Source: Patescibacteria group bacterium
GTDB taxonomy: Bacteria; Patescibacteriota; UBA1384; XYA2-FULL-43-10; CAINNR01
Assembly (NCBI GenBank): GCA_041651295.1
Contig: JBAZJN010000001.1
Span: forward strand, 83,662-147,661
Direction: 5' to 3'
DNA length: 64,000 bases
In this document: positions 19,269-64,000 of the stretch, in pieces
Layout: the number at the start of each line of letters is the position of its first letter
Position numbering within the stretch: the first letter of the stretch is position 1
Position numbers and translations under genes: made by a program
Notes under the pieces: model-generated
What the model saw: the letters and a program-made list of their open reading frames with translations, nothing else
Database searches by the model: none
Told to the model about the DNA's origin: nothing

Positions 19269-19307
19269 ATTTGTTTAGAAATTAGGTCAATTAGAAATTT
19301 TGCCGAA

Positions 19308-26700: not shown

Positions 26701-26735
26701 CTCGTCATTGGACGAACAACAAGGAGATGGTAATC

Positions 26736-27128
26736 ATGCCGTGCGTCCCCCAAGGGAATGCAACTCAACACCAGAGCGCTATCATTGGAACTATCGTCGT
26801 CCTGACCATCCTCGTCATCGCCTGGATCCTCCTGTCTACTGCTCAAGGCATTGGCGCCAAAAATGCCAAGAAGGATGCTACCGCGCTGGTGCTCGCAAAC
26901 CAATTGCGACAACTGCCAGTGCAACAACAAGTTGCTGCGATCAACCAGTCGGATGAGCTCGCTCGCGTCGCCGAGCAGCTCGGCGATGGCTATGTCGTCA
27001 ACAACAAGGCCAGCTATGTCAATTCGGTCTGGGTGGCCAACAAGCAGGGACGGTTTTTCCAGACCCTATGGGTGACTCAAGTCACCGACCGAGGCCAGGA
27101 GACCCATAAGTACAAACTAGTCCATTGA
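26736..27128 (+). CDS. orphan GC-rich membrane-anchored protein, 130 aa (cassette E)
   Basis: AAGGAG SD 9 nt before ATG 26736; single TM helix IIGTIVVLTILVIAWILL. Confidence 0.55.
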   Translation: MPCVPQGNATQHQSAIIGTIVVLTILVIAWILLSTAQGIGAKNAKKDATALVLANQLRQLPVQQQVAAINQSDELARVAEQLGDGYVVNNKASYVNSVWVANKQGRFFQTLWVTQVTDRGQETHKYKLVH

Positions 27129-32119: not shown

Positions 32120-32178
32120 GTCGTTCCCGCGCAGGCGGGAATCTACTATTAGTGGATCCCCACTTTCGTGGGGATGAC
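32120..32178. repeat. R1 repeat, copy c
   Basis: GTCGTTCCCGCGCAGGCGGGAATCTACTATTAGTGGATCCCCACTTTCGTGGGGATGAC. Confidence 0.8.
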
Positions 32179-32181
32179 AAT

Positions 32182-32221
32182 AAAAAACTGCCTTGATACA
32201 AACTATTGTGGCAGTTTTTTT
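32182..32221. terminator. bidirectional terminator between rpsT and lepB
   Basis: A-run, CTGCC..GGCAG hairpin, T7. Confidence 0.6.
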
Positions 32222-32867: not shown

Positions 32868-32873
32868 AAAAAA

Positions 32874-32940
32874 ATATCAAATGTCTAATTTCTAAATTGT
32901 TTAGGTTAATTAGATTGAATTAGAAATTAGGTCAATTTTA
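32874..32940. repeat. R4 AT-rich intergenic repeat, copy
   Basis: ATGTCTAATTTCTAAATTGTTTAGGTTAATTAG..AATTAGGTCAATTT. Confidence 0.6.
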
Positions 32941-38456: not shown

Positions 38457-39041
38457 TTGGGGCTAATATTAGAACACGTTACGAGCGTTTTCAGAACACT
38501 TCAGGCGCGTCTACTAACAGCACGACCCAACTTGCCAAAGTTCCAGCCGATCGAGTCACTCGCCGGCCATCTGCAGAGCCTGACAGCCCAGGCGATTGAG
38601 AGACACGGCAGGCTTCTGGCCGTCAAAACCGAAGCTGAATTCCAGGCTGGCCTGCTTAGCTTTAAGAAACCCTGCGTTCTGGAAATCGCTTGTCTCCGGC
38701 GGGACCGGATAGTCCAGCCACTCTCTGTTATGGATCGACACCAGACCAATCAGCTTGTCTCATTTTCCGGCCATCGCGACTTCTGCAACGGCTGGGAAAG
38801 GTCCCTACTCAAACTGGAAAACGGCACCGAGGCCCTACATGTGATACTGGGCGGAATCGGCAACGCCAGGAGCACTATTGGCCGAGAACTGCACCAGTTT
38901 GCTTGGAAGACAGAGATTGCTGGTGAGTCTTGCTGTGAGTGGCTACACCATCGCCGCGGGTTGGTTGCCTATACCGATGCCGTTGGCAGCACCTGCACGC
39001 TAGAACTACACTTCTTCGTTTCACAGGGGAGCACGTCCTAG
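38457..39041 (+). CDS. orphan GC-rich protein, about 194 aa (cassette H1); start uncertain
   Basis: AAGGAG directly abuts TTG 38457, so the true start is unclear; no recognised motif. Confidence 0.5.
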   Translation: MGLILEHVTSVFRTLQARLLTARPNLPKFQPIESLAGHLQSLTAQAIERHGRLLAVKTEAEFQAGLLSFKKPCVLEIACLRRDRIVQPLSVMDRHQTNQLVSFSGHRDFCNGWERSLLKLENGTEALHVILGGIGNARSTIGRELHQFAWKTEIAGESCCEWLHHRRGLVAYTDAVGSTCTLELHFFVSQGSTS

Positions 39042-43094: not shown

Positions 43095-43097
43095 AAT

Positions 43098-43129
43098 GTC
43101 ATCCTCGGGCTTGACCCGGGGATCCCGAC
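43098..43129 (-). repeat. R1 half-element, copy e
   Basis: Reverse complement GTCGGGATCCCCGGGTCAAGCCCGAGGATGAC matches the second half of the ychF copy; encodes the DedA C-terminus SGSPGQARG-stop. Confidence 0.65.
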
Positions 43130-43803
43130 CTCTTAGATTTTCTGACTTCCTTAATTATTTTTACCGCAATTACGACTGCCAAAAGTGCGATAACCAACCA
43201 CCTGGCAGTCAGAATCTCGACAACCCCGTCAGAGCTATAGTACATTAATACGCCCCAAAATGTTGCCCAGACAATGTTGGCGGCAACAGATTGAATCATA
43301 AACGGCGTAAATGGCAGTTTTAAAATGCCAAAAGCGGTCGAAGTAAGCGCCCCGAGGTTGGGGTGAGTATATGAGATCCATATCCACCAGCTGCCACGCC
43401 GCTCGACTTGTTTTTTAGTCTTCTCCAAAGCCTCACCCATGCCGAATTTGATGAATAACTTATGCCAGCCGGCGTGGCCGATCCAGTAATTGAGTGCATA
43501 AGTAAAACAAAATGATAAGGCGGTCAAAAATATGACGGCGTAAATATTGAGCGACCCTTGTCTGGAAAATGCTGCTGCCAGCAGGATAATTGATGACCCG
43601 GGAAAATAAATGTTGATAAGCGGGATCGATTCGATAATGGCCGAAATGACTAAAACCGGATAGCCATATAGTGCAAAATAATATTTTAAACCCTCCAGCA
43701 AGGCGTCCGGAGTCGGAAAAAAAATCGAGGCAATAATAAAAAAGACGACTAGGGTGGCCAACAAAATTAGCGGAATCGCCAGAGCTTTGACAATTCTTTT
43801 CAT
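43099..43803 (-). CDS. DedA/SNARE-associated family membrane protein
   Basis: Typical DedA N-terminal pattern (YGYPVLVISAIIESIPL..FPGSS) and 4-5 TM helices. Confidence 0.7.
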   Translation of the reverse strand: MKRIVKALAIPLILLATLVVFFIIASIFFPTPDALLEGLKYYFALYGYPVLVISAIIESIPLINIYFPGSSIILLAAAFSRQGSLNIYAVIFLTALSFCFTYALNYWIGHAGWHKLFIKFGMGEALEKTKKQVERRGSWWIWISYTHPNLGALTSTAFGILKLPFTPFMIQSVAANIVWATFWGVLMYYSSDGVVEILTARWLVIALLAVVIAVKIIKEVRKSKRSGSPGQARG

Positions 43804-43871: not shown

Positions 43872-44501
43872 CTAGCTTTCGTGGATCAGGCAAGCGACGG
43901 CACGCCAGGCTTGTGCTCGCACTTCCTCGATCGGAAGCAGAGCGTCAACCATGATCTTCTTGCTATCATGTTTCCCGAAGAGATCGAGGAAACCGTCTCG
44001 GACACGCCGATGGTAGTCGAGACTCTTCATCTCGATGCGGTCGCTCGTGTCGCGACCGCGAGATTGAAACAACTCCTCCGGCGGGCCATCCAACAAGATG
44101 AGCAGGTCGGGCTCAAGTCCGCAAGTCGCATAGTCGGTCATAGCGACTGCCAGATCAAGCGGCGCCTCGCCAGCATAGCACTGGTAGGCGTAGGTCGAGT
44201 ACTTGTAGCGGTCGGAAACGACATACCGGCCAAGGGTCAGAGCCGGCACAATGACATCTTCGCAGTGATGCGCACGATCGGCCAGAAAGAGTAGCAATTC
44301 CGACTTGGCTGACAGATCGTACTCTGTGCTCTTGAGTAGCCGGCGAACCTCTTGGCCAAAATCGGTCCCGCCCGGTTCCAGTGTCAGCGTCACTTCAAGA
44401 CTGCTAGTCTGGCTGATCAGGTCGGCAATCGCCATACAAAGCGTTGATTTGCCAGTGCCCTCACAGCCCTCGACCACGATGAACTTGCCAGGATACGACA
44501 C
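43872..44501 (-). CDS. tmk: thymidylate (dTMP) kinase, GC-rich
   Basis: P-loop FIVVEGCEGTGKST, DRY-like SDRYKYSTYAYQ; 3 nt downstream of the thyA-like gene. Confidence 0.85.
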   Translation of the reverse strand: MSYPGKFIVVEGCEGTGKSTLCMAIADLISQTSSLEVTLTLEPGGTDFGQEVRRLLKSTEYDLSAKSELLLFLADRAHHCEDVIVPALTLGRYVVSDRYKYSTYAYQCYAGEAPLDLAVAMTDYATCGLEPDLLILLDGPPEELFQSRGRDTSDRIEMKSLDYHRRVRDGFLDLFGKHDSKKIMVDALLPIEEVRAQAWRAVACLIHES

Positions 44502-44504
44502 GGG

Positions 44505-45335
44505 CTACTCACCGCCTTTCTGCCGCTCCCTCTCCAGGGCCGCGGCGATCTTGGCGCGGGCCTCGTCGATCAGGATCTGCACGTCCGGCGTGCGATAGGT
44601 GCGCTGCTCAAAGGTGCGGCTCTCGACGCTACCGAGGAAGCCCTTGAACTCGTCGAAGTACGATCCGTAGATGTGGAAGCTGTCCGCTACATGGTTGTAC
44701 TGCCCCGGGACAATGGTGCGACCGAGGGTCTCACTCAGACGCTCGGCCACGGCACGCTGCAGGTCGGTGAAGGCGTACATGTTCATGAACGCCGCCTTGT
44801 AGGCATCGTTGGAGCGCATGTGGGCGGCGAGCAGGAGGCGGTCGTCGAAGATGCGGAACCACAGGCGCTGCAGGCAGGCGCAGTGTTCGCAGTCGGGATC
44901 TTCCCAGGGCTTCCAGAGCACGCACTGGGCGCGCCGGGTGTGCGGGGCGGCGCTGAGGGCGCGGACAACGTAGTCGATCTGATCGACCGGCTCTGCCAGG
45001 CCCGGGATCCGATAGCTGCGGATGCGTTCGTGGTAGGAATACTGCCACTTGCCTTCATCCGGGGCGATCCAGTGATCATGGATCCCATCCACGACCTCCT
45101 GCCGGTAGACCTCGAGGTCGTCGAAACCTCCGGGCATGGCGCGATGGATGCGAGGCTCGGCGAAGGGATCCTCCACCGCCAGGAACAGGGACACGTCGCG
45201 GCTCTCGGGGTCCCCGGGCTTGTCATACTGGGTGGCGATGCGGGCGCCGCGCTCCCAGGTCTCCAGCACTGCGCGTTCCCAGCCTTTAGCCAGACCCTCG
45301 GCGACAACGTGTACGACAGGCAAACTTAGTTCCAC
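44505..45335 (-). CDS. thymidylate synthase ThyA-family protein (divergent, archaeal-like), GC-rich
   Basis: HTRRA, CEHCACLQRLWFRI (Cys nucleophile region), RSNDAYKAAFMNMYAF, ADSFHIYG; AGGTG SD 9 nt before GTG 45335. Confidence 0.75.
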   Translation of the reverse strand: MELSLPVVHVVAEGLAKGWERAVLETWERGARIATQYDKPGDPESRDVSLFLAVEDPFAEPRIHRAMPGGFDDLEVYRQEVVDGIHDHWIAPDEGKWQYSYHERIRSYRIPGLAEPVDQIDYVVRALSAAPHTRRAQCVLWKPWEDPDCEHCACLQRLWFRIFDDRLLLAAHMRSNDAYKAAFMNMYAFTDLQRAVAERLSETLGRTIVPGQYNHVADSFHIYGSYFDEFKGFLGSVESRTFEQRTYRTPDVQILIDEARAKIAAALERERQKGGE

Positions 45336-45444
45336 AGTAACCAACACCTTTCATCAGTGATGTGCGACTGACCCTCCTTCGCCTACGGCTACGGAAGGGT
45401 TTGTTGCCATCGGCAACAAAAAAAGGGTCTAGCCCTCCGACTAC

Positions 45445-45587: not shown

Positions 45588-46118
45588 TTAGGCCGGCAAG
45601 GCCAGACAGCGACGCTTGATCGGTTCACACCAGTGTTCAGTTTGTGGCTGTAGAACCTTGGTCAAATCCGATGGGCGATCGCCTTTTGCGTTCGGAGTGT
45701 TACGAACACCTCCGCGGTGGAGCGGGTTCCACATAGCGGTGTGATACGACAGCCAAACGCAGTCGATCTGTACAACTATGTGAAGGATTGTGTTGCCCTC
45801 ATTGTCACCAATGTCCATTCTGGCTCCGTGATCGAGTAGTTCACGTATCAGGCCAGACTCCATCCACCAGTTCGTCCGAATGTTATTGCCAGTCGGATCA
45901 AAGGCGAGGTGCATCGGAGTTCGTCCCATATTGTCCTGGGCGTTGGCATCAGCCCCAGCTTCCAGCAGGTCATGGGTAATTCTGGTGTGAAAGCCATCAA
46001 CCGAGTGATGAAGCGGCGTCATGCCGTTCTCGTCTCGATCATTAACTTGGTGAATGAACTCGGCAACAGCCTTGCGGCTGCCAGCATGCACAGCTTCAAA
46101 GATGTTTGTTGGTTTCAC
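45588..46118 (-). CDS. ankyrin-repeat protein
   Basis: Repeats NGMTPLHHSV, MGRTPMHLAF, EGNTILHIVV; GGAGGTG SD 6 nt before GTG 46118. Confidence 0.8.
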   Translation of the reverse strand: MKPTNIFEAVHAGSRKAVAEFIHQVNDRDENGMTPLHHSVDGFHTRITHDLLEAGADANAQDNMGRTPMHLAFDPTGNNIRTNWWMESGLIRELLDHGARMDIGDNEGNTILHIVVQIDCVWLSYHTAMWNPLHRGGVRNTPNAKGDRPSDLTKVLQPQTEHWCEPIKRRCLALPA

Positions 46119-46195
46119 GGAAAACACCTCCGCAAGTATACTATCATATTCTTTACTTTCAAACTCGTCTTTTAAGCTTGTTACAAAATACCAAA

Positions 46196-46266
46196 AAGTG
46201 TTACAAAAATGATAGATTTGTAACACATATTGACAAAAGTGTTACAAAAATGATAGATTTGTAACA
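46196..46266 (+). promoter_or_regulatory. tandem 30-bp palindromic operators overlapping the fic promoter
   Basis: AAGTGTTACAAAAATGATAGATTTGTAACA at 46196-46225 and 46237-46266, each holding TGTTACAAA-N9-TTTGTAACA; TTGACA 46230-46235 and ATAGAT 46253-46258. Confidence 0.65.
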
Positions 46267-47330
46267 TGAAGGCATTTCATCCAAACAAATTGCCTCAGAA
46301 ATTCGATTATTCTATTTTTGCCCGAGAATTATCAAGGGCATCTTTTGAAATAGGAAAACTTGATATTCAGAAAAAATTACCTAATCCACAATTACTGATT
46401 GCTCCTTTAACTCTTAAAGAGGCAACGACCAGTTCGAAAATTGAGGGTACAAGAAGTACTGTATCTGATGTAGCAAGACTCGAGGCTGGCATTGAAACAA
46501 AATATGCTGATACAAAAGAGGTGCTAAATTATCGCAGAGCAATGCTTTGGGCAATTAAATCATTTTCTGAAAAACGACCCCTGAGTCTAGCTTTTATGAA
46601 AGAATTGCACGATATCCTGCTCGACAAAACACGGGGTTACACGAAAAAAGGCAAATTTAGAACCGAACAAGTTTTTATTGGTGATCTAGGGGTTGATATT
46701 TCAAAAGCAACCTATATTCCCCCTGAACCAATTTTTATTCAAGACTATATGGAAAATCTAGAAAAATATATTATTAAAACAAGGGATGACAATCTGGTGA
46801 AGGCAGCAATCATTCACTATCAATTCGAGGCCATTCATCCCTTCTCAGATGGTAACGGCAGAATCGGTCGGCTGTTGATACCTTTGTTTCTGTTTCAGAA
46901 AAACACTCTGTTTCAGCCAATTTTATATTTAAGTGGATATTTTGACGAAAATCGCACAGAATATCTTAAAGCCCTCCACAGGGTAGACACCACGCGGAAT
47001 TATGAAGGATGGGTTAAATTTTTTCTCAGGGCTGTCGCAAAACAATCCAAAGAAACGATCAAATTGGTCAATCAAATTGATGCTTTGCTCACCAAGGTTG
47101 ATCAAAAAACAGATACGATTTCATCTTCTTACACAAGGAAATTTACTAATTTTATTTTTACACGGCCAATTTTCACCAGCAAAGATGTCGTCAAGTCGCT
47201 AAAAGTCGACAGAATGACAGCTTCAAGATTAATTAAAAAATATCACTCACTTAAAATTGTAAAATTAGTCAAATCAAATTCACCCAAAAAAAATATATAT
47301 GTCTTTGATGAATTACTTGTTTTACTATAA
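46266..47330 (+). CDS. Fic family protein (class II, N-terminal inhibitory motif)
   Basis: Fic motif HPFSDGNGRIGR; SSKIEG matches the (S/T)xxxE(G/N) inhibitory helix; C-terminal wHTH-like region. Confidence 0.88.
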   Translation: MKAFHPNKLPQKFDYSIFARELSRASFEIGKLDIQKKLPNPQLLIAPLTLKEATTSSKIEGTRSTVSDVARLEAGIETKYADTKEVLNYRRAMLWAIKSFSEKRPLSLAFMKELHDILLDKTRGYTKKGKFRTEQVFIGDLGVDISKATYIPPEPIFIQDYMENLEKYIIKTRDDNLVKAAIIHYQFEAIHPFSDGNGRIGRLLIPLFLFQKNTLFQPILYLSGYFDENRTEYLKALHRVDTTRNYEGWVKFFLRAVAKQSKETIKLVNQIDALLTKVDQKTDTISSSYTRKFTNFIFTRPIFTSKDVVKSLKVDRMTASRLIKKYHSLKIVKLVKSNSPKKNIYVFDELLVLL

Positions 47331-47351: not shown

Positions 47352-48464
47352 ATGGGATTAAAAATCGGAATTGTCGGACTACCAAATGTCGGCAAATCAA
47401 CATTGTTCAACGCCTTGGTTAAAGGTTCAAAAGCAGAAGCGGCAAATTACCCCTTCTGCACCATTGAGCCCAATGTTGGTATTGTCGAAGTTCCAGATGA
47501 GCGACTGAAACCACTATCCGATGTTTCCAAATCGAAAAAAATCGTTCCGACAGTTGTTGAATTTGTCGATATTGCCGGTTTGGTTCGAGGCGCATCAAAA
47601 GGCGAAGGCCTGGGTAATCAATTCCTTTCACACATCCGTGAATGTGATGCCATTGCTATGGTTGTCCGTTTTTTCAAAGACGAAAATGTAACTCACGTTG
47701 CCGGAAAATTGGATCCGAAAGATGACATCGCTACCATCGAGACCGAATTACAGTTAGCCGATATTGTAACCGTTGAAAAACGCCAATATAACTTGGATCG
47801 CGACATAAAAGGCGGATCAAAAGATGCCAAGACGGAAAAAGAGGCACTTGATAAAATTGCTAAAAAAATCACCGACGGCAAGAACGCCAGAGAAGCTGAT
47901 TTGAACGATGACGAACTAAAACTGGTTAAGTCGCTGGCACTAATGACAATGAAGCCGATTCTCTATATTGCCAACTGCTCAGAGGATCAGTTACTTCGTC
48001 ATTCCCGCGAAGGTGGGAATCTACTATTTGTGGATCCCCGGGTCAAGCCCGAGGACGACAAAGTCGAATATATTCCGATTTCAGCAAAAATTGAAAGCGA
48101 ATTGAACGAACTAAACGAGGTCGAAAAGCAGGAATACCTCGAGTCTCTCGGCATTGCCGATACCGGCATCAATCGGTTGATAAAAGAAGCCTACAAAGCG
48201 CTGAATCTAATCACCTATTTCACCTCAGGCGAGCCGGAAACCAGAGCTTGGACGGTTCGAAACGGGGCCAAGGCCCCGGAAGCTGCCGGGGTAATTCATA
48301 CCGATTTCGAACGGGGATTTATCGCCGCTGAAGTGGTTTCTTGGCAGGATCTATATGCTCAAGGTGGCTGGGCCGGTGCCAGGTCTCATGGGTTGGTAAA
48401 AACCGAAGGTAAAAATTACCTGGTCAAAGATGGTGATGTAATGCTATTTAAGTTTAACGTTTAG
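47352..48464 (+). CDS. ychF: ribosome-binding ATPase YchF
   Basis: GIVGLPNVGKSTLFNAL G1 motif, TGS-like C-terminal domain; contains in-frame repeat R1d. Confidence 0.92.
   Translation: MGLKIGIVGLPNVGKSTLFNALVKGSKAEAANYPFCTIEPNVGIVEVPDERLKPLSDVSKSKKIVPTVVEFVDIAGLVRGASKGEGLGNQFLSHIRECDAIAMVVRFFKDENVTHVAGKLDPKDDIATIETELQLADIVTVEKRQYNLDRDIKGGSKDAKTEKEALDKIAKKITDGKNAREADLNDDELKLVKSLALMTMKPILYIANCSEDQLLRHSREGGNLLFVDPRVKPEDDKVEYIPISAKIESELNELNEVEKQEYLESLGIADTGINRLIKEAYKALNLITYFTSGEPETRAWTVRNGAKAPEAAGVIHTDFERGFIAAEVVSWQDLYAQGGWAGARSHGLVKTEGKNYLVKDGDVMLFKFNV
47998..48059. repeat. R1 repeat, copy d, in frame inside ychF
   Basis: GTCATTCCCGCGAAGGTGGGAATCTACTATTTGTGGATCCCCGGGTCAAGCCCGAGGACGAC is translated as RHSREGGNLLFVDPRVKPEDD. 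Confidence 0.8.
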
Positions 48465-51888: not shown

Positions 51889-52448
51889 TGCTTTCTATCA
51901 CAGATCTAAAAGTTGGGACAAAAGTTATTATTGATGGTGACCCATACACCGTTACTTTTTCGCAACACTCGAAACAGGGACGTGGCGGGGCCGTAATGCG
52001 GACAAAACTGAAAAATCTTATCACCGGCGGAGTTATTGATAAAACTTTTCAGGGTTCTGACAAAATTGATGCAGCCGAATTATCCCATAAGTCGGCACAA
52101 TATCTTTATGCCGACAATGAAAATGCGTTTTTTATGGACAACACCTCCTACGAGCAGTTTGAACTTCCTGCAGCATCAATCACAAACGAATTAAAATACC
52201 TGGCAGAAAACTCTCCGGTCGAAATTCAATATTTCAAAGATAAGCCGATCAGTATTGATCTGCCGATTAAGATGACTTTTGAGGTCACGGATGCGCCTCC
52301 GGGAGTCAGAGGAAACAGTGCAGGCACGGTAACTAAGCTGGTGACAATTAATACCGGAGGGCAAGTTGCAGTTCCCTTGTTTATAAAAGCCGGTGACAAA
52401 ATTGTCATTGATACACGTTCTAATTCTTACATCGAACGGGCAAATTAA
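51888..52448 (+). CDS. efp: elongation factor P (Arg32 type)
   Basis: Three-domain EF-P; loop SKQGRGGAV has Arg (codon 51981-51983) where E. coli EF-P has Lys34. Confidence 0.9.
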   Translation: MLSITDLKVGTKVIIDGDPYTVTFSQHSKQGRGGAVMRTKLKNLITGGVIDKTFQGSDKIDAAELSHKSAQYLYADNENAFFMDNTSYEQFELPAASITNELKYLAENSPVEIQYFKDKPISIDLPIKMTFEVTDAPPGVRGNSAGTVTKLVTINTGGQVAVPLFIKAGDKIVIDTRSNSYIERAN

Positions 52449-52590
52449 ATCAAATTACTCTAATTTCTAATTCATTCTAATTGATCTAAACAATTTTAAA
52501 GCTCTTAATGTCTGACTTAACTAATTAGTCATTGGATATTTTTTAGGTTAATTAGGTCAATTTGAGAGTATTAGATATTTTTTGCTATAA
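52449..52590. repeat. R4 AT-rich intergenic repeat block
   Basis: TCTAATTTCTAATT..TTAGGTTAATTAGGTCAATTTGAGAGTATTAGATATT. Confidence 0.6.
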
Positions 52591-52597
52591 TATGATT

Positions 52598-53110
52598 ATG
52601 CTAATTGAGTTTTCAAAACTCGATAATTTGCCGGTTTTTGAACTCGAAACTCAGACTCGGGTTGGCCAATTCGCTGATTTTTTCATTGATGAAGACGAAT
52701 ATATAGTGGAAGCAGCGATTGTTTCAGCCGGAGGACTAATTAAAAAACAAAAGTTTGTTTCAGCCAAAGAAATATCAGAATTATCAAAAGAAGCTTTGAT
52801 TGTTGACCAGGCTGATAGTCTTGTTGAACCAAAAGAGATGGTCAGATTTCAGAAGAAACTAAAGAAAAGGGCAAAAATAATCGGTGAAAAAGTTTATACA
52901 AAAAAGGGAGAATATCTGGGTAATGTATACGACTACGTCCTGGAAAATACGACTCTGAGCATCGTAAGAATTTATTTAAAAAAAATGTTTGACCAAAGAA
53001 TTATTCATTCTTCGGCAATAGTTAAAATTGAACAACATAAAATTACCGTTAAAGATAACTTTGAGATGGTAAAGCCGGAAGTTTTGCCGGCTCATGCCAA
53101 GTTAGCTTAA
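52598..53110 (+). CDS. PRC-barrel domain protein
   Basis: Two PRC-like segments (LPVFELETQTRVGQ.., KVYTKKGEYLGNVYDY..); TGCTATAAT ends 6 nt before ATG 52598, so possibly leaderless. Confidence 0.6.
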   Translation: MLIEFSKLDNLPVFELETQTRVGQFADFFIDEDEYIVEAAIVSAGGLIKKQKFVSAKEISELSKEALIVDQADSLVEPKEMVRFQKKLKKRAKIIGEKVYTKKGEYLGNVYDYVLENTTLSIVRIYLKKMFDQRIIHSSAIVKIEQHKITVKDNFEMVKPEVLPAHAKLA

Positions 53111-53269: not shown

Positions 53270-53551
53270 TTACTTGACCAGGCTGTTGTTGTTCACGTCA
53301 GTGACCTCGCTGAACTGGCCGGCCAGCAAACCGAATGAGCTCTCGGACTGGCCCTCCCTCAGAGTTGCGAAGCCGATCAGACCACGAGGTTGACCGTCAT
53401 CCGACTTGCGCCGGAAAATCCGACCATTCTCGACTACGATCTTTCCGTCCTTCACCTTGATGCCTTCCGGTAGCTTCGGAGTCGCGCCAGAAGCCAGCTT
53501 GATGACATACGAACCATGGTGGTAGATGTCATATTCCATCTTCCTGGACAT
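53270..53551 (-). CDS. orphan GC-rich protein, 93 aa (cassette I2)
   Basis: GGGAGG SD 9 nt before ATG 53551; no recognised motif. Confidence 0.55.
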   Translation of the reverse strand: MSRKMEYDIYHHGSYVIKLASGATPKLPEGIKVKDGKIVVENGRIFRRKSDDGQPRGLIGFATLREGQSESSFGLLAGQFSEVTDVNNNSLVK

Positions 53552-53586
53552 GTTTCTCTGCCTCCCTCGATTAGTGCTCCAAAACA

Positions 53587-53615
53587 TATATATCACAAAA
53601 AAACTCGGATAACAA
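53587..53615 (-). promoter_or_regulatory. promoter of cassette I2
   Basis: TTGTTA-17-TATATA on the minus strand, right after the I1 terminator hairpin CGGAGC/GCTCCG. Confidence 0.45.
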
Positions 53616-53628
53616 AAAAACGGAGCGA

Positions 53629-54240
53629 CTAGGCTCCGCCGGACTCGCCGGATTCATAGAATACTTCCCCTTCGCGATACCCCCAGTTATGCAGTTCAAG
53701 GCGCAGCAGGTCAGACTTCTGGATCATGACAGCGCAGTTCATGCCCTTGTAGCTGCGTCTGACAGACCGCAGCAAGATCAGGCCGTGGTATGGCCAGATC
53801 GCGCCGTCTTCGACCGTCAACACGTTGTCGGAGATGTCGACGCACGGCGGAATGTTCATGAAGTTCGTACCGGGGCGGAAGTGGGCCCTGTAACCACCAA
53901 TGAAGCTCTCGGGCTGGTTTGACCATCCATATTCCGCATACTCCCGAACCGCCTGGCCTCGATAGACATGATTGACCCAGACTGGGCTGCCGTCAAACTC
54001 GCTGACGGTCGCGACGCGCCGGATGTCGATGCCGCCAAACATGTACGGCTGGAACAGCATGATGTCAGCGCAGTCGTAGTGATACAACAAACAGTTCGGA
54101 AGCTCAACCTCAGTGTCGGAGATCCAGCGACCGTTTTTGACATTCGGACGAGGGATCCCGTCAATGATCTGTAGCCGGAAGTTGCCTTCCTTGGTAAAAG
54201 TCAGACCGGGGTTGCGGAAGAACTCTTCTGTGGCTTCCAT
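53629..54240 (-). CDS. orphan GC-rich protein, 203 aa (cassette I1)
   Basis: GGAGG SD 6 nt before ATG 54240; no recognised motif. Confidence 0.6.
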   Translation of the reverse strand: MEATEEFFRNPGLTFTKEGNFRLQIIDGIPRPNVKNGRWISDTEVELPNCLLYHYDCADIMLFQPYMFGGIDIRRVATVSEFDGSPVWVNHVYRGQAVREYAEYGWSNQPESFIGGYRAHFRPGTNFMNIPPCVDISDNVLTVEDGAIWPYHGLILLRSVRRSYKGMNCAVMIQKSDLLRLELHNWGYREGEVFYESGESGGA

Positions 54241-54269
54241 GCAATGCCTCCGTAGATTCGACGCTCTTG

Positions 54270-54298
54270 AGATTATCACGTTTTTGGACTTTCGTCAA
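54270..54298 (-). promoter_or_regulatory. promoter of cassette I1
   Basis: TTGACG-17-TAATCT on the minus strand. Confidence 0.45.
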
Positions 54299-54422: not shown

Positions 54423-56180
<1,758 letters not shown>

Positions 56181-56805: not shown

Positions 56806-57294
56806 TTAGGTCACCATTGATCGCGGGCTCGTTACGAAGTCGTACGCTCGACGCCGGGTGTCATCAGGCAGAGACATGTAGTTACCCAGTTCACAGATCA
56901 GCCCGGGATCTCTTAAGCTGCAACTGAATTGTCGGGCCAGATCGATAGTCCCTTCCGGACCATCAATCGATGGAGTAATGTATTCCACGCAGTCAGGATG
57001 TTTGAACCAAACCCTATGCGTCCCGTAGATCATCCAGTTCCGCAGCTCCATGCTAGCGCCCGGATATACCAGCTTCCCATTGCGACCGTTGAGCGGCCAA
57101 CCGTAGATGCCGACACCGAGACGAGTGGCAGCTATCACCATCATATCATGCAGCAGGTCATCGGTCAGGTTCAACTCGCGGGAAAGATCGCGAACCTCAC
57201 GCTCGGTTCGGCATTCGGGGTGATTCACGAACTGCTGCAGCACAAACGCGATGACATCTAGCGCCAGAAAAGCAGACTTGATTTGCCCACTCAT
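56806..57294 (-). CDS. orphan GC-rich protein, 162 aa (cassette J)
   Basis: GTGAGGTG SD 6 nt before ATG 57294; no recognised motif. Confidence 0.55.
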   Translation of the reverse strand: MSGQIKSAFLALDVIAFVLQQFVNHPECRTEREVRDLSRELNLTDDLLHDMMVIAATRLGVGIYGWPLNGRNGKLVYPGASMELRNWMIYGTHRVWFKHPDCVEYITPSIDGPEGTIDLARQFSCSLRDPGLICELGNYMSLPDDTRRRAYDFVTSPRSMVT

Positions 57295-57322
57295 AGCTTT
57301 CACCTCACGGGTTTCTGCTTCC

Positions 57323-57351
57323 AAAATATCTAATTGATAAAATTTAGTCAA
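57323..57351 (-). promoter_or_regulatory. possible promoter of cassette J
   Basis: TTGACT-17-TATTTT on the minus strand. Confidence 0.35.
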
Positions 57352-57469
57352 TCAAAAATCCCCCTGTCTTTACAAATGGCAGCGCGGAAGGGGGGACCGT
57401 GCTGCCATCTTTAATTTACTAAACCAGAGTGCTTTTGTCAAACTGAGCAATAAAAACAAATGGTAAATT

Positions 57470-57535
57470 TAACAATTTATTAATTGGATATTTTTTAGAA
57501 ATTAGTAATTAGGTTAATTAGAAATTGATTTTACT
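57470..57535. repeat. R4 AT-rich intergenic repeat, copy
   Basis: GGATATTTTTTAGAAATTAGTAATTAGGTTAATTAGAAATTG. Confidence 0.5.
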
Positions 57536-58187: not shown

Positions 58188-58208
58188 TGCCAAAACTCTA
58201 GCACAGAA

Positions 58209-58237
58209 TTGCAAATTTTTTAAATTTCTGTTATTAT
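58209..58237 (+). promoter_or_regulatory. promoter of cassette K1
   Basis: TTGCAA-17-TATTAT. Confidence 0.45.
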
Positions 58238-58273
58238 TCTGTTCATCATATTCCGATTCTGAGGAGGCTCGAT

Positions 58274-58420
58274 GTGGGTTTGAATCTTACAGTTTTAGAT
58301 GGACAAAGGCGTTCTGATCACCGTTTCGCCTCCCGATTCCTGTTCTGGAGCATCATCGTCGTTATCACTATAGTCTGCTTCGTTATACTGCACTACGCAG
58401 GGGGAGATCCGTCCGGGTGA
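58274..58420 (+). CDS. 48-aa hydrophobic peptide (cassette K1)
   Basis: GGAGG SD 6 nt before GTG; ..RFLFWSIIVVITIVCFVILHYAGGDPSG. Confidence 0.4.
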   Translation: MGLNLTVLDGQRRSDHRFASRFLFWSIIVVITIVCFVILHYAGGDPSG

Positions 58421-58440
58421 ACACTTCACCCGTTTTTTAT
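58415..58440 (+). terminator. intrinsic terminator of cassette K1
   Basis: GGGTGAA/TTCACCC stem followed by T6. Confidence 0.65.
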
Positions 58441-58468
58441 TGACAAATTTAGATTTATGTGATATTAT
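58440..58468 (+). promoter_or_regulatory. promoter of cassette K2
   Basis: TTGACA-17-TATTAT. Confidence 0.5.
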
Positions 58469-58512
58469 CTTAGAATTTCCGCCGCGGATATCCTACGCCA
58501 AGAGGTGCTGTG

Positions 58513-59136
58513 ATGAAAAGTAAGTTGAGTAGTTTCCTGACCGGGCTTGGCGTTGTAGCCCTGGTCATCGTGATTGTTGGCAGTATGGGGTATGCAGTGC
58601 TCTTCGCGCCCGACTATCACGATGACCCCGAGTACCAGGCCAACCAACCCGACCCGCTCCAGGCCGATACCGAGACGCAGACCTACCGCGAGCAATTGTC
58701 CCGTCAGGATGAGATGGATCGCTGGGCCAGCGAGAATCACGTGGAGACTGAGATCTGGGGCAAGACCCAATCCCCGGACAAAAGGTGGACGGCGTGGAAC
58801 GTGAGCATCACAAACTTCGAGGGCTACGCCCAGGTCGGGATCCCTCGCACCGAGATCCACATCAAGTCATCCGATGGCACCGAGCACCAGCTCGATGAGG
58901 CTAACGAGGCCGGCCGCCTTCCATGGCTGTCGGAGCCGGTTTTCTCAGCAGACAGCAAAAGGGTCGCCGTGTTCGAGCGCGACGAGCTCGGCACCGGCCG
59001 AATCCTCATCTGGACGCTGGAAACCGGCGAGCTCAAGGTCGTCAGCCCGAATCGCGGCGACCTCGAGCGAATCTACAGCGACAAGGAAGGGGTCTTCCAT
59101 ATAGGCCCCGAAAAGCACGACTACTCCACCGATTAG
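58513..59136 (+). CDS. orphan GC-rich membrane-anchored protein, 207 aa (cassette K2)
   Basis: AGAGGTG SD; N-terminal TM helix FLTGLGVVALVIVIVGSMGYAVLF; beta-rich ectodomain. Confidence 0.6.
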   Translation: MKSKLSSFLTGLGVVALVIVIVGSMGYAVLFAPDYHDDPEYQANQPDPLQADTETQTYREQLSRQDEMDRWASENHVETEIWGKTQSPDKRWTAWNVSITNFEGYAQVGIPRTEIHIKSSDGTEHQLDEANEAGRLPWLSEPVFSADSKRVAVFERDELGTGRILIWTLETGELKVVSPNRGDLERIYSDKEGVFHIGPEKHDYSTD

Positions 59137-59157
59137 GGGTGGAATGAAGAACTGGAA

Positions 59158-59195
59158 GCGGGCGTGGCCGATACTGGCCCCGCCCGATTTTTTTA
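59158..59195 (+). terminator. intrinsic terminator of cassette K2
   Basis: GCGGGCG..CGCCCG stem followed by T7. Confidence 0.65.
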
Positions 59196-59196
59196 T

Positions 59197-59225
59197 TTGA
59201 CAATGCGAAAAGCGAATGATATATA
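59197..59225 (+). promoter_or_regulatory. promoter of the candidate ncRNA unit K3
   Basis: TTGACA-17-TATATA. Confidence 0.5.
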
Positions 59226-59231
59226 TTACTT

Positions 59232-59622
59232 ACGTAGCTGACGTGTGGTCAATACCGTTAAGACTATGTGCCCAGCCGCAAAACCTACCGGCCCACGTGA
59301 GCCGGAACAAATAGGTATTCCCATTTAGGGTGTGTACAGCCCAAGTGGGTCCCGGCCTAGGGTTCTAGTCACCAGCATCCATGCTGGTTCGGCGATCTCA
59401 TCAGCTGCTACTGACTTGTCTCGCGCCCGATGTGCAGGTCAAAAGACCACCGTTGTTGGCAGACGTGCCGGTGATACCGGAACTTCGCCCCGGTCGGTCT
59501 GCACGCGGTCACCGCGAGCAAGCACTCATTGTGGCGTCCCGCCACAAACATACCGTTGAGTCGTTGTTTCACACTCATCACGGATCACTCCGACACCCCT
59601 CCGGGTTGTCGGAGCTTTTTTA
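59232..59622 (+). ncRNA. candidate structured non-coding RNA of about 390 nt (unknown family)
   Basis: Lies between a consensus promoter and the CTCCGAC/GTCGGAG+T6 terminator. No SD-preceded ORF. Many GC hairpins plus long-range CTCGCG/CGCGAG and GTGCAG/CTGCAC pairings. Confidence 0.4.
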
Positions 59623-59640
59623 TTTAGAGCATAAATATTC

Positions 59641-61581
59641 TCAGGTAGTGGGTGCCGGTGCTGTTTCAGGAGCAGGCGCTGGCACAGCAGGTCCGACTTG
59701 CCAGATCTCCGGCAAAGCAACATATTTTGATAGAAAATCAATTTCCTGCATAATTTGACCGTCTCTTGAAACTTTATAATGAAACTTGGCAGATGCGCCC
59801 TGATGAGATTTTGATATTAAATTTCTGGTCCCGACCGGTAGCGCCGGATCAACATTTTCCACCGGAGCCGGTGGTTCAACATAGTCGTAACCGGTTGCCG
59901 ACCCGATCTCAATCACCCGGCTGTCTTTTGTGCCATAAAATTCAAATGTTATCTTCGTGCCAACAATTCTAGCTTGAACAAAAATATGACTCGAATAGTT
60001 GTTTTTAAACTTAAAATCCGGCGCCGGGTCAAAGATTGTCGCGTCCATGCCGATTGGCGGTTCATAATATGAAACTCGATATGAATGATTGCGTCGTTCG
60101 GTTATTTGCATTCCGGCGTTCAACGCAGCTCGAAATAGCGTAGTCGAGACCTGACAAAGGCCGCCGCCGTAATCCGGAACGGTTTTATTGTTTTTAATCA
60201 CCAATTCAGGCAAGTACCCTGTTGAAGCATCAATCTTGCCCAGCTTCTTTAATGTCGAGAACTCTTCACCCGGTTTAATTAGCGAACCGGAAATCGCGTT
60301 AGCACCAACATTGATATTGTGAATTCGATTTGCTGGCGATTTTACAAAATTGGTCGTGCCCGATGCCACCAATTCAGTTAAGCCATACGACGCAAGCTTG
60401 GCCGAATCGATATCGGGGGCGATCGCTGCAACTTTTAAGGTCACTGTTTTGGGATCTACAGTCGAATTTTCAGCAAAACGGGCTAAAAGCGCATTTTCAA
60501 TATCAATTTTTGTCTGACTTTGGTTTAGTGACGCACCGTTTTTCGAGTCGGAAGAAACAATGACCTTGCCATCAGAAACAGCCAAAATCGCATTTCCAGC
60601 CGTCTTATCAATCTGACTGGCCAGCGCCGAGACCTGCTTCAGAGTTTTTTCCGCAATAATATAAATTTCCATCTGCTTTTTCTTCGGTCGCGAACCAATA
60701 AGTCCGGCGATTGTATCGACATCCAGCGCAAAGTTTTGATTGCTGTATGTAATATTTAGGTCGCCAGCCGCAAGAATTTTGTTAGCATTACTGAGCCCTG
60801 TTTTGGCGTTTTCTTCTGTAATTTGCGGTTTAAAAATGTCCGATTTAAAGGAAATTTCTTTATTGTTTAAATCCGAGATATTAGATTTTAGATTTGAGAT
60901 TATTTCCTCCTGATCAATTCTCTTCCCCTCTTGTCGCTCCGTTTTAAGCTCAAATTCCCCAATGCCATTGTAGACCAAAGAGTAATCTTTCTCAGGAACA
61001 TCAACCTCAGCGGCAATATCAGAGATTTTTTTTGACAGGGCTTCTTCGTTCAAAGTAAAAGCAGCATCAACCTGATATTTTGTAAATAAAGTTTTTAGTT
61101 GCTGATAGAAGCTCCTAAAGATGTTACCAGACCGGCCGACGGCATAGATATCTTTGGCAGTTTTATCCAAATCGTAGGCCAAGCCAATATCGGCGGGCAC
61201 GAATTTATAAACTTTTTCATCACCTGAGCCTGGTTGGTACCTTAGAACAATTTCCTTTTTTTGAAACTCATCAGTTTTTGGTTTTAAAATCGGCGCAATC
61301 TCGTCTTTAGATTTTCCGGCAAGTTTAGTATCCCCGACATAAACGTTGCGATATGTAGTTTTGGCATAAGTTACAGAATATACGCCGAGAGTAATCAAGA
61401 ACAGCACCAACAAAAAGCCGATTCCGATAACCGGCCATTTTATTTTTTTCCATAGCTGAATGCGCTGGCGAAACTCTCGTATCCTCTCTCGCGCCTTGCC
61501 GACCGAAATCTTTTTCTTTTCTTTCGGCGAATTTTCACTTTTCGAGGTTTCAGCCATTTTTAACTTTTTGTTCTTAACCAC
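59641..61581 (-). CDS. VanW family protein
   Basis: YGGGLCQVSTTLFRAALNAGM..ERRNHSY VanW core; N-terminal TM helix; Pro/Ala-rich C-terminal tail. Confidence 0.85.
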   Translation of the reverse strand: MVKNKKLKMAETSKSENSPKEKKKISVGKARERIREFRQRIQLWKKIKWPVIGIGFLLVLFLITLGVYSVTYAKTTYRNVYVGDTKLAGKSKDEIAPILKPKTDEFQKKEIVLRYQPGSGDEKVYKFVPADIGLAYDLDKTAKDIYAVGRSGNIFRSFYQQLKTLFTKYQVDAAFTLNEEALSKKISDIAAEVDVPEKDYSLVYNGIGEFELKTERQEGKRIDQEEIISNLKSNISDLNNKEISFKSDIFKPQITEENAKTGLSNANKILAAGDLNITYSNQNFALDVDTIAGLIGSRPKKKQMEIYIIAEKTLKQVSALASQIDKTAGNAILAVSDGKVIVSSDSKNGASLNQSQTKIDIENALLARFAENSTVDPKTVTLKVAAIAPDIDSAKLASYGLTELVASGTTNFVKSPANRIHNINVGANAISGSLIKPGEEFSTLKKLGKIDASTGYLPELVIKNNKTVPDYGGGLCQVSTTLFRAALNAGMQITERRNHSYRVSYYEPPIGMDATIFDPAPDFKFKNNYSSHIFVQARIVGTKITFEFYGTKDSRVIEIGSATGYDYVEPPAPVENVDPALPVGTRNLISKSHQGASAKFHYKVSRDGQIMQEIDFLSKYVALPEIWQVGPAVPAPAPETAPAPTT

Positions 61582-61633
61582 AAGTCAATAATATAGATAT
61601 ACGTTGGAGTTTTCAAGAGCGAATGCCAAACCA

Positions 61634-61662
61634 TTGACAAACTACGATTGATATGCTATAAT
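61634..61662 (+). promoter_or_regulatory. promoter of the candidate sRNA unit L
   Basis: TTGACA-17-TATAAT (perfect consensus). Confidence 0.55.
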
Positions 61663-61668
61663 GCTTGT

Positions 61669-61792
61669 TGTCATTCAGTTGACATATTAAACAAGAAGGA
61701 GGTGCCTTTTACCCGGCAATTACGCTGGCAGGAGGGCACCCGTGCATCCGCCTTAAATCTGGTCGTGGCCGTTGGCCGCGGCCACTTTTTTT
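61669..61792 (+). ncRNA. candidate small RNA of about 125 nt (unknown family)
   Basis: GGTGCC..GGCACC stem, then GTGGCCG/CGGCCAC+T7 terminator; no start codon at a usable distance from AAGGAGG; no downstream same-strand gene. Confidence 0.35.
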
Positions 61793-61897
61793 ATTCCAAG
61801 ATAGCGACACGGCTTCAAGCCGTGGATGAAGCGATCTAATAGACCGGCCGAAGGCCATACAAAGCGGAACAGTACCACGGGCTATGCCCGTGAGTAT

Positions 61898-62029
61898 CTA
61901 TTTCGAGCTCAAAATCCGGTTCAATAAATCTATTTGAGACTTCTCATCCAACACAACTCCGGACTCTAAAAGCCGCTTGAATTCATCAGCCAAGTCCGTT
62001 TTTTCTTCATTAGACTGTTTTTCGTCCAT
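61898..62029 (-). CDS. possible 43-aa ORF overlapping the end of the membrane-protein gene
   Basis: Hand-translated MDEKQSNEEKTDLADEFKRLLESGVVLDEKSQIDLLNRILSSK; no clear SD. Confidence 0.2.
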   Translation of the reverse strand: MDEKQSNEEKTDLADEFKRLLESGVVLDEKSQIDLLNRILSSK

Positions 62030-63560
62030 AAAATTTATTTAGAACCAGATAAATCGCAATCAGGACGAGAACAATTCCGGCAATGATGGCGCGAACAGTG
62101 ATGTTGTAAGGATTTTCGATCAGTGCCGAAGCCAGAACCGACAGAACCACTGCTAAAAACACTTCTTCGTCGGCAGTTCTGGTCAAAAGATTAACTAATA
62201 TCGCTCCGGCAAGCGCACCGGCAAGATAAACCGGCCCCAACGTCACCCCAGTTACAAGAACGATCAGCACCACAGCTGACACTTTGAGCAGGTTATTTTT
62301 GAACACCTCCAAATTTGAGAGATACGTCAGAGTTCCACCAAGAATTAAACCGGCAATAATTTTCTGATTTCCTAAATCAAGACTGTACTTTTTCATTTGA
62401 GCAACGAAATAAGTTAAAAATCCAAGCGCCAAAAGCGAAACTAAGGTGGCAACAAAACTTCCTGTTCTAATCTCTGGAACCCTTTCGGCAGTTAAAACCG
62501 ACGGTGCTTCGCTCAGTTCGGCAGTTAAAGCGATGGTTTCAGCATTTTTCATAATCCCGGAATAACTGGCGAAAATGGCTGCAATTACGGCTGATGCCGA
62601 AAATCCGACCAGCAAAAAGACCATACCAACCGTTCCGAAGAAATAATTAGAAGCTAAAAGCAGAAGCCCGACCGATATTGCCGGGATGATTTTGTTGACC
62701 TTATGAAAAGTTAAATTGAGAATGCTAAAAACATATCCGATTGCCAAAGAGGCGGAAACCAATATCAGATTATAGCTTACACCGAAGAAATGCTTCTGAA
62801 CAGAATAATAGAAAACCACCAACAAAAAGAGCGTAAATAAGCAAAGCCCGTAAAATATTGCCGAGCTCTTGATAAATTTTTTGGCTAAAACCGATGTCAG
62901 TACGGCAGAAAGCGCGGCAAAAACAATTGTGGTTGCAGAAATTCCGGCTGCGAACAGCTTATAGTTGGCGGCATTTTGTAAATAACTACCAAAAACGGCG
63001 AAAGACAGAGATATGGTCGCAACAACCAAAAGCGCGTATTTGGACTTGCCGCGCGGCCAAAATATCGAAGTGATTATTAAAGCCAAAACCAGTGAAAGCA
63101 GCGTCGCCGTGGTCGAGAAGAGATATTGGATGCCAAGGCCAAAGACGATCGCGACAGCTGTTATTAATATTGATCTAAAAACACTTGCAGAGTAGATAGA
63201 CCGGAAAACTGTTTTTTGCCCGCTTCGAGAGAGCTCCACTGCCCGAGCTCCGGAATTAACCGCAAGATTAGTCTGATAATAATCGAGAAGTGGAAAAATT
63301 ACGGCTGCAGCCAGGAAAACCGCCGCGCTCTGCCAGCCGAGAGCATAGAGGATCGCGACTAATAGTACAACTGCAACCATTGAATAGTTCTTGAGAGCCA
63401 GTTTATAATCCGATCTCGTTTCCTTCAAAACAGCTTTGTGGGCGTCGGAGATCTTTTTTGAGCTGGTTTTTACCTGCCTTTGCCGCAGAGAAAATATTAG
63501 AGAAATGATGATAGCCAGAGCCGAGATGGAGAAAATTCCATAGAGGACAAGCTTTTCCAT
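62010..63560 (-). CDS. polytopic membrane protein (about 14 TM helices), unknown function
   Basis: 516 aa, hydrophobic throughout; no transporter signature I can name. Confidence 0.65.
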   Translation of the reverse strand: MEKLVLYGIFSISALAIIISLIFSLRQRQVKTSSKKISDAHKAVLKETRSDYKLALKNYSMVAVVLLVAILYALGWQSAAVFLAAAVIFPLLDYYQTNLAVNSGARAVELSRSGQKTVFRSIYSASVFRSILITAVAIVFGLGIQYLFSTTATLLSLVLALIITSIFWPRGKSKYALLVVATISLSFAVFGSYLQNAANYKLFAAGISATTIVFAALSAVLTSVLAKKFIKSSAIFYGLCLFTLFLLVVFYYSVQKHFFGVSYNLILVSASLAIGYVFSILNLTFHKVNKIIPAISVGLLLLASNYFFGTVGMVFLLVGFSASAVIAAIFASYSGIMKNAETIALTAELSEAPSVLTAERVPEIRTGSFVATLVSLLALGFLTYFVAQMKKYSLDLGNQKIIAGLILGGTLTYLSNLEVFKNNLLKVSAVVLIVLVTGVTLGPVYLAGALAGAILVNLLTRTADEEVFLAVVLSVLASALIENPYNITVRAIIAGIVLVLIAIYLVLNKFYGRKTV

Positions 63561-63660
63561 AGAATCCTTTCGTTATTACTTTATCTAAAGCTAGGCTAGC
63601 AGAAAAAAACAAGCTCAGCAATAGGCGTTTCAGGCTTCAGAACGAAATCTGATTTTATCA

Positions 63661-63689
63661 TTGACAAACAAGCTCAAGTGTGCTAGTAT
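63661..63689 (+). promoter_or_regulatory. promoter of cassette M
   Basis: TTGACA-17-TAGTAT. Confidence 0.5.
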
Positions 63690-63782
63690 AAATCGTTACG
63701 TCGTAGGACATTTGGCATGATTCACGCTTTGCCATATTGAGCGGTGGTGCGTGCCAGCCAATACACCAAGGAGATAACCCGG

Positions 63783-63926
63783 ATGACCAAGACATCGACG
63801 TTAAGGGTCGGCCAGTTCGTGCTGGCCGAAATCATGGAAGGCTTTCCGGTCGACGTTTACGAGGGCGAGACACTCGTGATCGCCGAACCAGTCGCCAGCC
63901 GCTTGCTGAACCGCCTTCGCCTGTAG
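63783..63926 (+). CDS. orphan GC-rich small protein, 47 aa (cassette M)
   Basis: AAGGAG SD 9 nt before ATG 63783; MTKTSTLRVGQFVLAEIMEGFPVDVYEGETLVIAEPVASRLLNRLRL. Confidence 0.45.
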   Translation: MTKTSTLRVGQFVLAEIMEGFPVDVYEGETLVIAEPVASRLLNRLRL

Positions 63927-64000
63927 TTCACGCCAGAAGTCAGTCTGTCTCTCCTCCCATGAGCGAGAGGCATACAACTTCCGGAAATGCCGCGAATCTT

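Follow-up and report, generated by a model that had tools for sequence, protein, structure and literature searches.

A candidate strain-specific, non-coding transcription unit in a variable islet beside a VanW gene of a Patescibacteria genome

Introduction

Can a compact, GC-rich stretch of DNA with its own promoter and terminator and no credible gene be taken as the locus of a new class of structured RNA? The question is raised by positions 59197-59622 on the + strand of the window, as we call the whole 64-kb stretch analysed here, part of a MAG of a Berkelbacteria-like member of the Patescibacteria. Sequence inspection delimits at this place a self-contained, predicted promoter-to-terminator unit of about 390 nt, which a preliminary description made from the sequence had presented as a candidate novel structured RNA. 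Part of that description stands: the unit is a self-contained + strand unit, it is non-coding, and it belongs to no known family. The part that is not supported is the conserved structured RNA. At a probability of roughly 60%, the unit is best read as an evolutionarily young, strain-specific orphan transcript of the sRNA kind, lying in a flexible islet next to a VanW gene.

Signals and limits of the unit

The coordinates of the unit, its parts and its neighbours are collected in Table 1. The spacer of the promoter ends in a TG at 59217-18, giving an extended -10 element, and transcription would begin near 59232. Sites of the form TTGACA-N17-TATANW occur four times in the 64-kb window against 0.10 expected, so that the motif picked out by the preliminary description is indeed above chance. 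The terminator it named is likewise present and is recovered independently by a consensus terminator scan. Its three hairpins (59371-59388, 59468-59480 and 59531-59545) and its two long-range pairings (59420-25 with 59513-18, and 59432-37 with 59499-504) also lie where it had placed them, and all of them recur in the minimum free energy (MFE) structure.

On the left, the unit is bounded by the intrinsic terminator of the orphan gene ORF208; on the right, the convergent VanW gene has its stop codon 19 nt beyond the unit. The body has a GC content of 0.57 against 0.43 for the genome. Because the window sequence is identical (100%) in three independent assemblies, the region is not an assembly artefact. 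The strain occurs in SRR8542065 and ERZ27247363. Taken together, the signals are those by which an sRNA gene is recognised, namely a sigma-70-type promoter of its own directly after an upstream terminator, a Rho-independent terminator at the 3' end, and no conserved open reading frame. From these signals we infer promoter activity at 59197-59225, transcription of the unit, the ends of its transcript and any function that it may have.

Table 1. Features of the unit and of its immediate surroundings, in window coordinates
Feature	Position	Strand	Description
ORF208, orphan membrane-anchored protein	58510-59136	+	GC 0.60; own promoter (58440-58468) and terminator
Intrinsic terminator of ORF208, left edge of the unit	59160-59194	+	GGGCGTGGCC-GATACT-GGCCCCGCCC, then T7
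Promoter and GC-rich body of ~300 nt, strain-specific	59195-59525	+	GC 0.57
Sigma-70-type promoter (predicted)	59197-59225	+	-35 TTGACA (59197-59202), 17-nt spacer, -10 TATATA (59220-59225)
Body domain 1	59234-59408	+	Multibranched, closed by GUAGCUGA/UCAGCUGC, includes hairpin 59371-59388; single-sequence prediction
Body domain 2	59412-59524	+	~100 nt, closed by CUCGCG/CGCGAG and GUGCAG/CUGCAC; apical hairpin CCGGUGAUACCGG
Conserved 3' block, VanW 3' flank	59526-59640		95.6% identical in L075; two hairpins and terminator
Hairpin 3	59529-59547	+	UUGUGGCG-UCC-CGCCACAA; loop gains one A in L075
Hairpin 4	59553-59583	+	Predicted on both strands; on the - strand followed by UAUGUUUGU
Intrinsic terminator of the unit	59588-59621	+	11-bp interrupted stem, loop CUCC, then C and U6; arms CTCCGAC (59588-59594) and GTCGGAG (59608-59614), T6 at 59616-59621
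VanW-like protein with PG_binding_4 domain	59641-61581	-	PF04294 (2.4e-44) and PF12229; convergent, 3' end abuts the unit

A composite of two segments

The VanW gene served as a synteny anchor for locating related loci, 65 of them in GTDB genomes, which were inspected beside VanW, and 43 in metagenomes. Among all these, a single metagenome locus, L075 (Ga0172381_10012704), shares sequence with the unit, and only over 59526-59646. L075 represents a sister strain: its VanW protein is 95% identical in amino acids, and the nucleotide identity is 93.5% over 59526-61740 and 95.9% over 61907-64000. Within the unit the alignment begins only at 59526 and covers the 3' block at 95.6% identity, with four substitutions and a 1-nt insertion in the loop of hairpin 3. 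Upstream of 59526 nothing can be aligned, and 59195-59525 has no counterpart in L075.

On the far side, L075 matches the window up to the T-run of the ORF208 terminator and diverges beyond it. Between that terminator and the shared block, L075 carries 2.3 kb that comprise, besides pyrG and its terminator, an AT-rich spacer, a TTGACA hexamer and a stretch of about 300 nt that is unrelated and has a GC content of 0.56; the scan finds a perfect -35 and no acceptable -10 before this stretch. Since the flanks are 93-96% identical and the bodies cannot be aligned, the body must have been replaced or inserted, which is neither divergence by point mutation nor conservation. The unit is thus a composite of two parts with different histories.

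The five differences between the two strains in the 3' block are changes in loops, bulges or unpaired positions plus one uncompensated change in a pair. The terminator of the unit is conserved, its bulged U being replaced by C, and the pair change is a U-to-C substitution in hairpin 4. On the - strand, hairpin 4 together with the tract UAUGUUUGU may form the terminator of the VanW mRNA, which would then end near 59545.

The upstream neighbour ORF208 (protein WC451_00710 at NCBI) has one distant homologue only, P0002 in the Berkelbacteria locus L066, where 80 nt separate it from VanW and no 390-nt unit lies between. The high GC content of ORF208 and its position adjoining VanW are both kept in this distant relative. 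As a separate observation, the 3' end of ORF208 (window 58510-59136 against L075 7719-7949) has only 84% nucleotide identity, and the genes that flank the ORF208 region (VanW and an H+-PPase-like gene) are 93-96% identical to L075. Either ORF208 is a fast-evolving gene, or it is part of a recombined tract adjoining the replaced segment.

The VanW site in other relatives

The site beside VanW holds different contents in different relatives. In L079, the terminator of pyrG is followed by TTGACA, an unrelated stretch of about 420 nt with a GC content of 0.57, a strong terminator and the VanW stop codon; as in L075, the -35 is perfect and the scan finds no acceptable -10. L002 has TTGACA-16-TATATA, about 140 nt and a terminator. 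The stretches of L075 and L079 are therefore less sure as candidate transcription units than those of the window and L002. L003 and L080 carry a small membrane-peptide gene at the site, L001 and L076 a 72-aa ORF and AT-rich DNA, and in L077/78 only 67 nt lie between VanW and the neighbouring gene.

The non-coding stretches show no mutual resemblance by blastn or tblastx. Smith-Waterman comparison of the three stretches with the window body, judged against shuffles, reveals no resemblance either, and a multiple alignment of all four yields nothing past promoter hexamers and T-runs. Two short words are exceptions: CCCATTTAGGGT is common to the bodies of the window and L075 (p~0.003 against shuffles) and occurs nowhere else in 117 loci, and GTCTGCACGC is common to the window body and L002 (p~0.01 against shuffles). 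We cannot say whether these words are functional motifs, recombination footprints or luck. Across three lineages, a stretch of 300-400 nt with a GC content of about 0.57 occupies the same site in a small genome of 0.43 GC, a persistence that hints at maintenance rather than junk and, like the two shared words, counts against a young orphan transcript.

Wider searches add no relative of the body. No homologue of 59195-59525 appears in 12 GTDB relatives, the 43 metagenome loci, phage and plasmid records or IMG/VR. A distant-mode blastn search against phages and plasmids finds nothing, three 18-mers of the unit give only chance matches in IMG/VR, and one exact 20-mer scanned in the metagenome collection finds nothing, including the unit's own sequence; as the metagenome and IMG/VR scans used exact words, they are shallow for diverged DNA. 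The metagenome search that the preliminary description had recommended for homologues thus comes back empty for the body, both in the VanW-anchored loci and for the 20-mer. With no homologues there is no alignment in which to seek covariation, so that absent covariation, which that description had named as an outcome that would speak against its proposal, is effectively what is found.

Fold signal, part by part

Folded as an RNA of 393 nt, the whole unit reaches -159.1 kcal/mol, compared with -128.4 +/- 5.4 kcal/mol for dinucleotide shuffles (z -5.65), and the opposite strand has a z of -3.70. As controls, 66 windows of 390 nt were taken from the 64-kb window. Just one of them has a lower z than the unit, 46000-46389, the site of a perfect 32-nt repeat, and for GC-rich coding DNA the controls give values between +0.9 and -3.7.

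This signal is unevenly distributed. It is strongest in the 3' block (59526-59622), at z -6.06 on the + strand and -5.01 on the - strand, and a good part of the whole-unit value comes from the three hairpins of the VanW flank. The body as a whole (59230-59525) has z -3.76 (+) and -2.15 (-), which puts it at the extreme edge of the range of GC-rich coding DNA and not clearly beyond it. Within the body, domain 1 (59232-59410) folds at -70.7 kcal/mol with z -4.10, and domain 2 (59411-59525) at -49.4 kcal/mol with z -2.68 (+) and -1.90 (-). The GC-rich stretches of L075 and L079 have z values of -2.39 and -2.23.

Two of these results count against the reading as a young orphan transcript. Domain 1 by itself is unusually stable, and the + strand of the body folds better than the - strand, as would be expected were the transcribed strand selected for structure. 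The proposal of a novel structured RNA with a conserved fold is nonetheless not supported, on other grounds: the body is missing from L075, no homologues of it were found in the collections searched, and the best-folding part is the terminator block of the VanW flank. On this pattern of presence and absence, the sequence comparisons do not support a conserved new RNA class.

Known RNA families and repeat systems

Rfam 15, run over the whole window at gathering thresholds, reports only a tRNA-Ser at 15124. At E<=10 over 58200-59800 it gives two chance-level matches, both outside the unit, and it finds nothing in L075 or in the loci of 13 relatives. ARAGORN detects no tmRNA in the window. The Rfam scan proposed in the preliminary description therefore matches the unit to no family and, with ARAGORN, bears out its remark that signatures of RNase P, tmRNA, SRP and 6S RNA are absent.

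No repeats occur in 59150-59660. A CRISPR or TIGR array is rejected, as internal repeats are lacking there, and so are a template/variable repeat pair of a diversity-generating retroelement (DGR) and a retron, which have neither a repeat partner in the window nor internal repeats. A search for paralogues or antisense targets of the unit within the 64-kb window gives only chance-level matches.

Alternative readings of the unit

The two + strand reading frames listed in the preliminary description, 59332-59559 (ORF75, 75 aa) and 59381-59758 (ORF125, 125 aa), exist as it described them. Both lack a Shine-Dalgarno (SD) sequence, and ORF125 continues past the terminator into sequence antisense to VanW. 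None of the unit's ORFs contains a Pfam domain, nor do five stop-masked frames. Among 5.8 billion proteins, the sole match of ORF125 is to itself, and ORF75 has no match in 1.84 billion representatives. A codon model gives negative scores to all six frames of the unit. In L075, the frame of ORF125 is lost upstream of the hairpin-3 loop, and the starts of both ORFs fall in the segment that L075 does not have. The earlier judgement that the unit contains no credible ORF is borne out by this lack of SD sequences, homologues, Pfam domains and positive codon scores, and the frameshift or absence of the candidate ORFs in L075 removes the coding readings.

A decayed gene is a different matter. The unit could be a transcribed pseudogene, the remains of a GC-rich orphan protein cassette of the ORF208 type in which promoter and terminator survived and the frame was destroyed. 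We regard this as unlikely, although several features point that way. The GC content resembles that of the genome's GC-rich orphan genes (0.52-0.65), small orphan genes turn over highly at this site, and the + strand frame of ORF125 is interrupted by just two stops (both TAG) over about 187 codons and comes nearest to zero in codon score. Furthermore, the GC of the unit is periodic over three bases (chi-square 9.07, p=0.011), to a degree that lies inside the coding-window range, and it is this periodicity, not fully explained, that keeps a pseudogene origin in consideration. Against it, no frame has any protein or Pfam similarity, and tblastx of the unit finds nothing in the relatives' loci or in the rest of the window. 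The promoter is not followed by an SD sequence or start codon, the codon scores are negative throughout, and the open frame passes through the terminator. The translated composition, rich in R, H, P, L, S and C and poor in D, E and K, also looks non-coding. Recoding of TAG was considered and rejected; the neighbouring ORF208 itself ends in TAG.

A functional, very fast-evolving class of structured RNA, of which the stretches in the window, L075, L079 and L002 would be orthologous members, is distinctly improbable. In its favour, the stretches share a syntenic position and a GC content of 0.56-0.57 against 0.43 in three lineages, with sizes of 390-420 nt in those three and about 140 nt in L002. 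The window and L075 stretches have a 12-mer hairpin motif, CCCAUUUAGGGU, that is unique to them, L002 has a similar -10 region and predicted transcript start (TATATATTAMTYACGT), and the z values of the whole unit and of domain 1 also speak for it. However, between flanks of such high identity the body has been replaced rather than point-mutated, and the four stretches yield no common alignment or structure. Those of L075 and L079 fold only moderately and have no good -10, and several relatives carry nothing at the site. More doubtful still is the specific form of this idea, that the four stretches are one RNA gene family whose position, GC-richness and length of about 400 nt (in three of the four) are maintained, with a sequence turning over, or being swapped by recombination, faster than in any known structured RNA. 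Were it true, function would not reside in the primary sequence but in the fold, the composition or convergent transcription as such.

A small protein gene is barely credible: the - strand ORF57 (57 aa, 59408-59581), which would be co-transcribed with VanW, does have an SD-like GGAG at a proper distance, six nt ahead of its GTG, and GC values by codon position (0.59/0.45/0.72) like those of this genome's GC-rich genes, and ORF125 is called as a gene in one assembly. That GGAG, however, is buried in the terminator stem, and the codon score of ORF57 (-0.5) is as low as in the lowest-scoring true genes (mean +11). ORF57 has no word in common with any protein; in L075 the 1-nt loop indel shifts its frame, leaving 18 codons, and the two substitutions in the part that both strains share each alter the amino acid. 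Homologues are lacking for all three ORFs, and ORF75 and ORF125 have the defects already given.

A probable young orphan transcript in a flexible islet

The reading as a young, strain-specific orphan transcript accounts for the two parts of the unit separately. The 3' block (59526-59640) would be a convergent terminator block inherited together with VanW. It would stop the + strand unit at 59621 and, through hairpin 4 and the U-rich tract on the - strand, probably also the VanW mRNA. The promoter and body (59195-59525) would be a strain-specific cassette in an islet that has VanW on one side and the nucleotidyltransferase gene (in relatives, pyrG) on the other. In this islet, self-contained + strand cassettes, each consisting of an upstream terminator and then its own promoter and terminator, would be gained, lost and reshuffled among close relatives. 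The two stable domains predicted for the body find no evolutionary test in any visible genome.

Any function of the unit would most likely be lineage-specific. The 3' portion of about 75 nt would be complementary to the putative VanW 3' UTR ending near 59545, and this makes a cis-antisense or convergent-transcription effect on VanW the most concrete possibility.

If the reading as a young orphan transcript is right, it advises caution with low-GC genomes, in which a GC-rich promoter-to-terminator island with a striking z can be a strain-specific orphan, and its fold signal can stem largely from the terminator block of a neighbouring gene. It also suggests that, small as CPR genomes are, strains with 93-96% identity can exchange self-contained cassettes, coding or non-coding, at a short intergenic islet. 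New small RNAs and small proteins would arise in islets of this type.

Other features of the window

Tight junctions, in which a hairpin and a T-run are followed by TTGACA(A), delimit modules of the window at 58433-58445 and 59188-59202. Similar T-run/TTGACA(A) junctions lie in L066 (~1740-1765), L079 (~3400-3420) and L002 (~2170-2195). Across the window, the pattern T5-N0-8-TTGACA marks 5 distinct sites, with 10 overlapping matches in all where 1.5 would be expected. That these shared junctions of about 15 nt provide short homologies for cassette reshuffling is speculation.

A second ORF-less promoter-to-terminator unit on the + strand lies at 61634-61793, between VanW and the upstream genes for 43-aa and 516-aa proteins. 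It consists of TTGACA-17-TATAAT (61634-61662), about 130 nt and the terminator GTGGCCGTTGGCCGCGGCCAC followed by T7. In a comparison with L075 2784-3300 (-), conservation extends over the promoter and ~65 nt beyond it, a part that includes AAGGAGGUGCC paired with GGCACC and, in both strains, a second AGGAGG with a 4-codon mini-ORF after it. Beyond this part, the window has about 90 nt, and L075 about 420 nt of GC-rich sequence with another terminator. The fold z for window 61600-61989 (+) is -4.49.

A conserved small membrane peptide of about 45-48 aa, with the pattern xLNLxVxDGxxR ahead of a hydrophobic helix, is encoded at 58274-58420 (+) in the window, 5942-6088 (-) in L003 and ~2220-2360 (-) in L002. 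Its gene has its own promoter (58209-58237) and terminator (58414-58432) in the window, and in all three loci it is divergent from a nucleotidyltransferase-like gene.

Many short ORFs with a GC content of 0.52-0.65 (GC3 up to 0.83) stand among the housekeeping genes of this 0.43-GC genome, for example at 11018-11590, 13470-13925, 26679-27128, 38457-39041, 43872-45347, 53270-54279, 56806-57351 and 58510-59136. The segment 7398-8207, 810 nt long with a GC content of 0.52, has no ORF of at least 90 aa and apparently contains several small ORFs on the - strand; its fold z, from +0.01 to -1.4, is unremarkable.

Repeats occur elsewhere in the window. At 46194-46266, the perfect 32-nt direct repeat AAAAGTGTTACAAAAATGATAGATTTGTAACA is present in two copies at a spacing of 41, each copy palindromic, between the divergent genes 45588-46226 (-) and 46266-47330 (+). 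This region has the most negative control z (-6.4), and the repeat is probably an operator pair. AT-rich intergenic repeats with words like TTAGAAATTAGGTCAATT, direct and inverted, are found at 19275-19299, 32869-32944, 52446-52598, 56083-56170 and 57469-57526. A second intergenic family has a GC-rich palindromic core (…GTCATCC…GGGGATCC… / …GGATCCCCG…) and lies at 11631-11687, 15890-15946, 32149-32187, 43097-43139 and 48018-48060, resembling REP-like or terminator-associated elements.

Comparison with known systems

The large structured RNAs OLE, GOLLD, ROOL, HEARO and raiA, all in Rfam, came to light in screens that set GC content against the length of intergenic regions. The unit is like them in being a GC-rich island of several hundred nucleotides in a lower-GC genome, with a multi-domain predicted fold and a very negative z. 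Unlike the unit, which has no Rfam match or found homologue and whose body is replaced in L075, they have many homologues and covariation.

The 3' block in turn resembles convergent or bidirectional terminator blocks of the excludon-like, cis-antisense kind: 59526-59640 lies between convergent units, is inherited with VanW and folds into strong hairpins whichever strand is read (z -6.1 and -5.0). It differs in that the overlap is predicted from sequence signals and that the - strand has no canonical U-tract after the main hairpin.

The site as a whole compares well with flexible genomic islets. The flanks are the same (VanW on one side, the nucleotidyltransferase gene or pyrG on the other), the content varies by relative, and each module has its own terminator-promoter junction. 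Here, in contrast to such islets, some of the cassettes are non-coding, and no integrase, attC-like sites or repeats are present.

A further parallel is with lineage-specific, "young" or orphan sRNA genes, which have a sigma-70 promoter at one end and a Rho-independent terminator at the other; the concept comes from the literature on the origin and turnover of enterobacterial sRNAs. Like these, the unit is a free-standing intergenic element with its own promoter, an intrinsic terminator and no ORF, and its distribution is confined to one strain, in a variable region adjoining orphan genes. At about 390 nt it is long for such a gene and far more GC-rich than its genome, and we know of no Hfq or ProQ context in Patescibacteria. 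Although no described family takes it in, the unit is of a known kind, that of lineage-specific, free-standing non-coding units.
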